DNA of 4,727 nucleotides from a virus (Duplodnaviria; Heunggongvirae; Uroviricota; Caudoviricetes). Position 1 is the first letter of the stretch. Each line of letters opens with the position of its first letter. Shown piece after piece: positions 742 through 1,778 of the stretch. Location of the stretch: the IMG/VR virus record IMGVR_UViG_2609459839_000002; one strand, given 5' to 3'. The position numbers and the translations under genes are program-made. The notes under the pieces are model-generated. The model searched no databases, was not told the DNA's origin, and was given only the letters and a program-made list of their open reading frames with translations.

Positions 742-781
742 GTGTTGATTTCTGGTCATGAGGTAATTTTCAGGAGGACTT

Positions 782-1204
782 GTGGCAAAAGTTTTTACAC
801 AAGAAGAGCGAGAAAAAATTAAAGGGCGGGTTGTTGAACTCGTACGCCAGAGTGGGCGTGAGACGTTACGGCAACTGGAAGTCAAGACAGGTGCGACAAG
901 ATATCTGATGAGCGTTCTCGCAAGAGAGCTGGTTGCCAGCGGCGATGTATACAACTCTGGTTACGGGTTATTCCCGTCTGAACAGGCGCGTAAGGACTGG
1001 CAAAATGCCCGTAAAAAGCTCTCAAGGGCAAAGCTGAAGAAACCATCTGCGGTTGATCCGGACCTTATCTGGTCATTACCTGACGGAGAAATACGTCGCT
1101 ACGACAGGCGTCAGAACATAATCTGTCGCGAGTGCCGGAAGAGTGAGGTTATGCAGCGAGTGCTGGCGTTTTATCAGGGTAATTTTCAGGAGGTGATGGC
1201 GTGA
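782..1204 (+). CDS. Hypothetical phage protein, 140 aa, GTG start
   Basis: ORF in track. AGGAGG at 773-778 sits 3 nt before GTG 782. Basic, charged protein with one CxxC (ICRECRK). No family recognised. Confidence 0.55.
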   Translation: MAKVFTQEEREKIKGRVVELVRQSGRETLRQLEVKTGATRYLMSVLARELVASGDVYNSGYGLFPSEQARKDWQNARKKLSRAKLKKPSAVDPDLIWSLPDGEIRRYDRRQNIICRECRKSEVMQRVLAFYQGNFQEVMA

Positions 1205-1497
1205 GGGTGAGAGTCTATATCGCCGGTCCAATGACCGGGTATAAAAATTTCAACCGTGAGGCGTTTCACAATGCGGAAGAGGAACTGAAACGGGAAGGGC
1301 ATACCGTCTTAAACCCGGCAGTACTTCCGGACGGGCTGACACAGCCGCAGTACATGGATATCTGCATGGCGATGATTCGTTGCGTGGATGCGATTTACAT
1401 GCTGCAAGGCTGGCAGCGGTCAGCAGGCGCTAAGGCGGAACTGGCGCTGGCGGAGAAGCTGGGGCATGCAGTTATTTTCCAGGAGGAGGTACAGTGA
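1201..1497 (+). CDS. DUF4406 / nucleoside 2-deoxyribosyltransferase-like phage protein, 98 aa
   Basis: N-terminal VYIAGPMTG glycine motif, ...GHTVLNPA..., ...DAIYMLQGW.RS.GA..E...A..LG pattern typical of the DUF4406 family as I recall it. GTG start overlaps the upstream stop (GTGA). AGGAGG at 1188-1193. Confidence 0.65.
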   Translation: MRVRVYIAGPMTGYKNFNREAFHNAEEELKREGHTVLNPAVLPDGLTQPQYMDICMAMIRCVDAIYMLQGWQRSAGAKAELALAEKLGHAVIFQEEVQ

Positions 1498-1778
1498 ATA
1501 TCGACGCAACAATGACGATTGGTACGGCCCTCAATACGGGGCTGGCGCTTCTTGGTTGGTGCTACGTCATGTTCTGCTCATGGCGGTGGCTGTCACTGAT
1601 GTTACTGAAAAAATGGAATAAACGCTGTAAACAGACGCAGCGGCAGAAGGCAATGAATGCGTTTTTTGAGACCTTCGATATTGACAGTATGGAACCAGGA
1701 GAGCCAGCTCGCGTGATTAGCAGAGGTGACGTTGTAATTCTTGTATACCGGAGTGAAGAGAAATATGAGCGAAATTAA
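1494..1778 (+). CDS. Small hypothetical protein with N-terminal hydrophobic helix, 94 aa
   Basis: ORF in track. GTG 1494 overlaps the upstream TGA (GTGA). AGGAGGAGG at 1481-1489. Hydrophobic stretch TIGTALNTGLALLGWCYVMFCSWRWLSLMLL. Alternative start ATG 1512. Confidence 0.5.
   Translation: MNIDATMTIGTALNTGLALLGWCYVMFCSWRWLSLMLLKKWNKRCKQTQRQKAMNAFFETFDIDSMEPGEPARVISRGDVVILVYRSEEKYERN

Follow-up and report, generated by a model that had tools for sequence, protein, structure and literature searches.

A repeated ribosome-binding box as the probable translation-initiation linker between cassette-like genes of a Rac-like lambdoid prophage

Short conserved 'boundary sequences' at the module junctions of lambdoid phages are credited to Susskind & Botstein 1978 and, for HK620, to Clark et al. 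2001 in the passages of PMC3029335 that deal with them. In the debate on phage mosaicism, exchange at short shared sequences is set against random joining followed by selection. In the mycobacteriophage Island3, the inserted small gene 68 has a tail that resembles that of its upstream neighbour, the repeat being ~50 bp long and covering 18 residues (PMC3029335). Phage recombinases of the Rad52-like kind work on homologies that are short and diverged, and the minimal pairing segment is 23–27 bp for Red-beta and 31–34 bp for RecA (PMC3945230). At the level of translation, the intragenic Shine-Dalgarno sequence matters for termination-reinitiation in four of the five E. coli gene pairs tested (PMC6728339, Huber et al. 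2019), and local structure that limits independent initiation is a hypothesis in that work rather than a strict requirement. The feature described below joins two of these known things, namely the intragenic Shine-Dalgarno sequence with stop/start overlaps and the short conserved junction of lambdoid mosaics.

The window, by which we mean the whole stretch of 4,727 nucleotides that was analysed, belongs to a Rac-like lambdoid prophage of E. coli, of which it is the early-right operon. Its positions 1–3949 match a prophage adjoining ompW in E. coli E275a with three mismatches (99.9% identity). The E275a prophage carries integrase, excisionase, exonuclease VIII-like, dicB, repressor and cro-like, and ydaT-like genes, and this set is followed by the genes of the window in the order replisome organizer, DUF977, DUF4406 and DUF4752. 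From these gene assignments and this gene order, the three junctions under study lie in the early-right operon, right after the replication gene.

All the genes and boxes concerned are on the plus strand. The 3′ part of the replisome-organizer (replication initiation) gene occupies 88–741, as assigned from the ORF list, PHROG 3729 (E=1.8e-152) and the PGAP annotation of the 99.9% identical prophage, and ends with the TAA at 739–741. It is followed by DUF977 at 782–1204 (140 aa, GTG start; Pfam PF06163, E=1.3e-32; PHROG 142; PGAP coordinates), which is alternatively annotated as LygF or as a 'Ren-like exclusion protein' and has ATG in place of GTG at its start position in some relatives. Next come DUF4406 at 1201–1497 (98 aa, GTG start), a nucleoside 2-deoxyribosyltransferase-like protein by Pfam PF14359 (E=5.4e-38) and PHROG 355, and DUF4752 at 1494–1778 (94 aa, GTG start; Pfam PF15944, E=3.7e-43, and the junction graph considered below). 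The starts and stops in the ORF list are the same as those in the RefSeq PGAP annotation of the nearly identical prophage. Between 755 and 1500 the plus strand showed neither a promoter-like nor a terminator-like site, PADLOC gave no defence-system match for the three genes and two cargo genes, and our literature search found no functional study of DUF977, DUF4406 or DUF4752. The sole Rfam match in the window is sok, at 3869–4024.

Each of the three junctions contains a copy of one short box. The exact 16-mer GGTAATTTTCAGGAGG is present at 762–777 and again at 1178–1193, and a third copy with three mismatches, GTTATTTTCCAGGAGG, lies at 1471–1486 and runs on as AGGAGGAGG to 1489. The mean chance expectation is 0.04 matches, and none of 200 dinucleotide-preserving shuffles gave three or more. 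The flanks of the exact 16-mer at 762 and at 1178 are unrelated to each other, and there is no inverted repeat or hairpin inside the box. A literature search with the box sequence returned only unrelated C. elegans primers and found no description of this box. Scanning 596 Gb of genomes for the 16-mer yielded mostly unrelated taxa (MAGs and other genera), with one E. coli among the 80 loci listed; as ~280 matches are expected by chance at this length, the scan was uninformative.

The first box (GGTAATTTTCAGGAGG, 762–777) is the non-coding, putative ribosome-binding site of DUF977. It lies 20 nt past the upstream stop and 4 nt ahead of the GTG at 782, within the 40-nt non-coding gap that follows the TAA, and there is no stop/start overlap at this junction. 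In nearly all junctions between the replisome organizer and DUF977 this box is unchanged, and the spacer ahead of it varies. The second box, (G)GGTAATTTTCAGGAGG with the extension TGAT at 1177–1197, is the putative ribosome-binding site of DUF4406; it is held in the last nine codons of DUF977, where it encodes G-N-F-Q-E-V-M. The third, GTTATTTTCCAGGAGGAGGT at 1471–1490, is assigned in the same way to DUF4752, encodes V-I-F-Q-E-E-V of DUF4406, and contains two overlapping Shine-Dalgarno registers. These assignments are based on repeat search and duplex energy, together with junction comparison for box 1 and codon entropy for boxes 2 and 3. The GTG starts at 782, 1201 and 1494 are 4, 7 and 4–7 nt past boxes 1–3. 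At the latter two, the start and the preceding stop are fused as GTGA, at 1201–1204 (DUF4406 start, DUF977 stop) and at 1494–1497 (DUF4752 start, DUF4406 stop), in agreement between the sequence, the ORF list and the PGAP annotation. Two alternative starts were considered and appear less likely than the annotated GTG codons: a GTG at 1207 for DUF4406, which is 13 nt from the Shine-Dalgarno sequence, and an ATG at 1512 for DUF4752, which is not conserved and is replaced by Ile in relatives.

An earlier sequence-only reading of this DNA had reported near-identical boxes at three junctions, each shortly upstream of a GTG, and two GTGA overlaps, all of which we find as described. Its coordinates for box 2 were right; those of the other two boxes were off by one, the first ending at 777 and not at 778, and the third spanning 1471–1489 and not 1470–1489. 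It had also placed the box within the 3′ end of the upstream gene, with similar C-terminal peptides as the consequence. This is the case at junctions 2 and 3, where the tails read ..NFQEVMA and ..IFQEEVQ, but not at box 1, which is in the non-coding gap. When the last 27 nt of DUF977 and of DUF4406 are aligned with their stop codons in register, 19 of the 27 are identical. The Pfam models of both proteins end at the Phe right before Q-E, and these model ends fit the view that the Q-E-x-x-x tail is an add-on whose sequence follows from the ribosome-binding site that the neighbouring gene needs. Annotation should accordingly be cautious with the C-terminal tails of these small proteins, which would be set by the neighbour's ribosome-binding site.

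In composition, the box is a U-rich tract followed by a very strong Shine-Dalgarno sequence, the core AGGAGG being a perfect one. At both overlapping starts AGGAGG stands 7 nt ahead, inside the 3′ end of the upstream gene. Within box 2, the 10 nt of AGGAGGTGAT (1188–1197) are complementary, without a mismatch, to the 3′ end of 16S rRNA. Paired with this 3′ end, boxes 1–3 have predicted duplex energies of −10.3, −17.7 and −13.5 kcal/mol, to be compared with a background of −4.3 ± 2.8 kcal/mol over all 22-mers of the window, of which box 2 is the strongest site. The predicted folding at the three boxes is no better than that of shuffled sequence (z-scores of +0.55, +1.50 and +0.70).

The codons that carry the box point in the same direction. 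Across 64 unique box-carrying alleles of DUF977, the third positions of the codons TTT, CAG and GAG have an entropy of 0–0.12 bit, whereas third positions elsewhere in the gene average 0.50. In the same alleles the 7-nt spacer after the Shine-Dalgarno sequence is highly variable, and the GTGA that follows is invariant. DUF4406 shows the same pattern of constraint, the third positions of CAG and GAG being invariant in 45 alleles. Since synonymous sites are frozen and the spacer is free to vary, selection acts on the nucleotides TTTCAGGAGG and GTGA rather than on the peptide that they encode. Alleles differ in GGTAAT, the left half of the box, so the exact 16-nt identity seen in the window partly reflects which alleles this strain carries. 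The duplex energies and the frozen synonymous sites support the function that the sequence-only reading had attributed to the box, that of a ribosome-binding site, predicted here to serve the downstream gene.

A different use of the same sequence would be as a shared operator, bound by a phage translational repressor, an endoribonuclease or a small RNA that would regulate several cistrons at once, in the manner of T4 RegA/RegB. The same sequence does recur at three consecutive initiation regions, and its conservation extends slightly beyond the Shine-Dalgarno sequence into the T-run. However, no Rfam family matches the boxes, no structure is predicted at them and no candidate regulator was identified, and ribosome binding suffices to explain the conserved core. 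We consider a shared operator very unlikely.

If the box serves the gene that follows it, the two should be found together. We compared 56 unique junctions at the 3′ end of DUF977 in this respect. Where the box is present, a full-length downstream ORF starts at the stop codon in 34 junctions and is missing in 7; where it is absent, the corresponding numbers are 3 and 12 (Fisher's exact p=2.5e-5). DUF977 genes that stand last in their operon, such as that of phage Tritos, close with ..GDVRYLLK (..FYQGDVRYLLK in Tritos) and lack the Shine-Dalgarno sequence. At all seven loci that have the box and no full-length ORF, the downstream gene is reduced to a remnant of 10–24 codons, and in four of the six remnant junctions printed the Shine-Dalgarno sequence is mutated to CAGAAGG or CAGGATG. 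The box is thus present with a full-length gene attached and absent or decaying otherwise, which supports a role of the box in the service of the downstream gene, as judged from these comparisons of sequences. The presence of the box at homologous junctions was the search on which the sequence-only reading had staked its proposal, and the box is kept there together with the full-length gene.

Coupled translation across the GTGA overlaps at 1201–1204 and 1494–1497 is plausible from this arrangement, and in line with the tests on other E. coli overlaps in PMC6728339. Junctions 2 and 3 have co-directional stop/start overlaps, with an intragenic Shine-Dalgarno sequence at each (−17.7 and −13.5 kcal/mol); junction 1, with its 40-nt gap, has none. 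Local structure that would limit initiation is not seen, the boxes being located in unstructured RNA according to the predicted fold. Because strong Shine-Dalgarno sequences in unstructured RNA are open to ribosomes, independent initiation is equally possible. A frameshift fusion of DUF977 and DUF4406 through the internal Shine-Dalgarno sequence was also considered and was rejected from the sequence, as it needs a −1 shift and AUG GCG UGA offers no slippery heptamer.

The three junctions are also places where related prophages differ. Of 5426 complete E. coli genomes, 4232 contain pieces of window positions 1–2100, but one continuous match over at least 80% of this region is present in only 93. 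Matches to sequenced phages stop at 1167–1197 or at 1486, and many begin at 773. We gathered ~280 viral contigs by means of the box and the DUF977 and DUF4406 proteins, and recorded where their 306 unique BLAST alignments with the window start and end. The ends are concentrated at 1180–1209 (n=98) and 1480–1499 (n=53), and the starts at 750–789 (n=52). It should be mentioned that alignment breakpoints are equally common at 670–679, 1800–1819 and 1870–1879, where there is no box.

A survey of junction partners in ~230 related prophage loci, summarized as a junction graph, shows what is exchanged. Eight different gene families are found behind the 3′ end of DUF977 and its box: DUF4406, DUF4752, three Ead/Ea22-like types, a 20-codon Ead/Ea22-like remnant, a putative methyltransferase, and a family beginning VSESKCQ... 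The 3′ end of DUF4406 with its box is followed by seven families, and three are common to both boxes. GTGA(G) is retained ahead of all eight families behind the DUF977 box. GTG is the start codon of roughly 14% of E. coli genes, about one in seven; it is the start in eight of the eight partners of the DUF977 box and in five of the seven partners of the DUF4406 box, mostly in the form GTGAG. On the upstream side, DUF977 is preceded by at least four different genes, each with a variant of the box, and DUF4406, in 108 loci, by DUF977 and one other gene only.

The same reassortment can be followed for single genes. DUF4752 is found behind the DUF977 box or behind the DUF4406 box, depending on the prophage, and some loci lack DUF4406, with DUF4752 coming straight after DUF977. 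In light of this reassortment and of these direct joints, DUF4406 is an optional cassette with boxes 2 and 3 as its limits. Five different downstream sequences are attached to one DUF977 allele, which is 91–100% identical over the 300 nt ahead of the joint; the identity ceases shortly ahead of the box, within it, or right behind CAGGAGG(T). In some cases the breakpoint separates the T-run from the Shine-Dalgarno sequence, for example where GTGAAGTAATTT is followed by TGTCCGGAGG or by CAGGAGG. A scar of such an exchange may be present in the window itself, at 1765–1812, where sequence and junction comparison identify a 15-codon remnant, MSEINYQALREEEKA followed by a stop, of the conserved Ead/Ea22-like N-terminus. 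The same remnant stands directly after the DUF977 box in other loci, with a decaying Shine-Dalgarno sequence, and Ead/Ea22-like genes are the commonest alternative partners at the boxes, which is why we regard the remnant as left by an earlier cassette.

As a pattern, these comparisons support the boxes as junctions at which related prophages have probably swapped genes. The sequence-only reading had suggested both, as a possibility, a duplicated junction that promotes the shuffling of genes and a stoichiometric translation of the three genes as one module. The partner counts and the DUF977 allele with five downstream sequences agree with the former, with the box taken as a marker of the exchanges. 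The latter is not supported: because DUF4406 and DUF4752 are each optional and replaceable by unrelated genes, the three genes do not form an obligate unit.

We propose that, in Rac-like lambdoid prophages, the early-right (post-replication) operon contains a cassette-like gene array whose translation-initiation linker is the box, and we hold this to be probably correct. The proposal draws directly on the repeat and its geometry, the strength of the Shine-Dalgarno sequence, the constraint on nucleotides, the association with a downstream gene, and the reassortment at the box. The linker consists of a U-rich tract and a very strong Shine-Dalgarno sequence, (T)TTTCAGGAGG(TG), then ~7 poorly constrained nucleotides and a GTG, in most cases fused with the upstream stop as GTGA(G). 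In junctions 2 and 3 it is contained in the last codons of the upstream gene, to which it would give a short dispensable tail (..FQE-x-x-x-stop). The Shine-Dalgarno sequence would capture ribosomes finishing the upstream gene, and probably free ribosomes too, so that the next gene could be begun at a weak GTG. Copies of the linker flank many unrelated small genes, and with the same linker at each of them, genes could be gained, lost or replaced at the linkers without disturbing expression.

How the copies came to be alike is a separate question. Most likely, the near-identical copies share ancestry via cassette exchanges and have been kept alike by selection for ribosome binding. A purely convergent origin would dispense with such ancestry: the boxes would be good ribosome-binding sites that evolved independently and have no role in exchange, and the joints would be at gene boundaries since selection removes gene-breaking recombinants after illegitimate recombination. 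Function alone does explain much of the conservation, because the left half of the box varies, leaving a constrained core that is essentially a Shine-Dalgarno sequence with a T-run, and because the 14-mer TAATTTTCAGGAGG is found as a ribosome-binding site in many unrelated phages, preceding ATG starts in many unrelated viral contigs. Box-free junctions break as often, and the box is shorter than the minimal Red-beta pairing segment (PMC3945230). Yet of the two sites that share the 16 nt one is non-coding and the other coding, and their flanks are unrelated; the tails of DUF977 and DUF4406 agree when their stop codons are aligned; the rare form GTGA(G) stands in place of ATGA at almost all partners; and some breakpoints split the T-run from the Shine-Dalgarno sequence. 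From the first three of these observations we infer that the junction was inherited as a unit and not reinvented each time, and convergence alone is in our judgement unlikely.

Shared ancestry via exchange does not by itself make the box a driver of exchange. In the 'boundary sequence' model the box would be a microhomology favoured by phage single-strand-annealing recombinases, and would raise the rate at which cassettes are exchanged. The prophage carries an exonuclease VIII/RecE-like gene. Breakpoints are located inside the box or at its edges, even within one allele background, and recombination may have occurred within the box. DUF977 has a copy of the box on either side, in direct orientation, and boxes 2 and 3 flank the optional DUF4406 cassette. 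The activity of Rad52-like phage recombinases on short, diverged homologies (PMC3945230) and the inserted gene of Island3, with a C-terminal tail that is a repeat of the one in the gene upstream (PMC3029335), are further points in favour of this model. Against it, exact identity is limited to 16 nt between boxes 1 and 2 and to ~7–11 nt between boxes 2 and 3, both below the minimal pairing segment. The expected product of a deletion between boxes 1 and 2, in which the replisome organizer would be followed by the box and DUF4406, is absent from all 108 DUF4406 loci. Box-free junctions recombine too, and if joining were imprecise, selection that retains intact and expressed genes would place the joints here as well. 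An actively recombinogenic box is therefore, in our view, unlikely.

A more specific possibility, which we rate as quite improbable, is that TTTCAGGAGG-N7-GTGAG is also a microhomology hotspot at which the prophage's own annealing recombinase swaps small accessory genes. If true, this would amount to an integron-like cassette system in lambdoid prophages, in which the exchange site is the expression signal. In either case, because a junction of ~25 nt links many genes and its breakpoints can be mapped to the nucleotide, the locus is a practical test bed for the ribosome-binding site as a recombination linker.

The proposed translation-initiation linker can now be placed beside the known systems. 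It resembles termination-reinitiation pairs (PMC6728339) in its co-directional genes, the 4-nt overlap, and the strong Shine-Dalgarno sequence that the upstream gene holds in its last codons, at 7 nt from the start. It differs from them in having GTGA in place of the usual ATGA, no predicted suppressing structure, and a first junction that lacks an overlap. With integron cassettes it shares, as an analogy only, small, exchangeable, co-oriented genes and a recurring short separator. Integrons, however, have attC sites and a dedicated integrase, whereas the box has no inverted repeat or hairpin and the recurring sequence is a ribosome-binding site; the only integrase here is the prophage Int, ~8 kb away, and no dedicated recombinase lies beside the array.

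In Island3, as here (..NFQEVMA and ..IFQEEVQ), the tail of a small gene resembles that of its upstream neighbour, a likeness to be expected if the gene was inserted via a repeated junction sequence. Here, however, the repeat covers 16–27 nt, or ~8 codons, instead of ~50 bp, and belongs to a different phage group. A further counterpart is the lambdoid boundary sequence, as PMC3029335 presents it. The locus agrees with it in a short conserved sequence shared between unrelated flanks, a position at gene boundaries of the early operon, and mosaic breakpoints that coincide with the shared sequence. The differences from that account are that the box, at 16 nt, is shorter than the lengths that support efficient homologous exchange, and that the conserved sequence is itself a ribosome-binding site with a start/stop overlap, so that function alone can keep it conserved. 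The locus is not a new mechanism but a clear case of known phage mosaicism, in which the box itself is a new example of the known 'boundary sequences'.

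The prophage of E. coli E275a that lies next to ompW (L001) differs from the window at three positions in 3949 nt. One of them alters the Shine-Dalgarno motif within box 3 (1471-1490), the junction sequence that precedes the DUF4752 gene. Position 1481 is an A in the window and a T at the corresponding L001 position 10481, which changes CCAGGAGG to CCTGGAGG. The T form has lost the first Shine-Dalgarno register of box 3 and keeps the second (AGGAGGT, 1484-1490).

Farther along the same operon, a second family of junction sequences was found in Rac-SA53 (L004, 3200-4010) and in related loci, with the forms AAAGGAGAGTGA(T/C)-ATG/GTG and CAGGAGGCAACCAGTGA. 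Because this second family recurs in related phages, linker-like junctions seem to be typical of the gene array as a whole, extending beyond the three junctions of the window.

A GC-rich hairpin immediately 3' of a Shine-Dalgarno-like motif, CAGGAGGCCGCCCGAAAGGGCG, was also observed at 2094-2120, after the small gene at 1878-2090. Phage vB_EcoS-689R5 carries the same sequence ahead of another gene (L002, about 6450-6480); the sequence may be a further portable junction or a terminator element.

The end of the DUF4752 gene is overlapped by the remnant of an Ead/Ea22-like gene start (1753-1812), 15 codons encoding MSEINYQALREEEKA*, which is absent from 16 related loci. The segment that differs between loci with and without the remnant is flanked by GTGAAGAGAAA and GTGAAGAAGAGAAA, and the form lacking it appears to have arisen by deletion between short direct repeats.

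Two overlapping genes of 184 and 310 aa occupy the reverse strand at 2129-3612, with a G+C content of 33% against about 50-55% for the operon. Neither gene has a match in Pfam or PADLOC, and their PHROG matches are confined to families of unknown function. Related phages carry other reverse-oriented cargo at this site, including a different 1335-nt gene in Tritos, and the pair may be accessory or defence cargo.

A sok antitoxin RNA was matched by Rfam at 3869-4024 (82.6 bits, E=5.7e-18), where the E275a prophage has an intact hokD. Identity to E275a stops at 3949/3950, where an IS150-like element begins (TGTACTGCACCCA...; region 3950-4727, orfA at 3995-4516); the hok/sok locus of the window's strain has thus received an insertion sequence.

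Within the replisome-organizer gene, region 58-140 contains five copies of GTCACG (59, 69, 79, 90 and 100), spaced 10-11 bp apart, or one helical turn, followed by 2.9 copies of ACAGATAAAGAT (106-140); the 12-mer repeats encode the peptide ..TDKDTDKDTDQED... The whole set lies inside the gene, an arrangement that looks like origin iterons within an initiator gene, as in lambda O.
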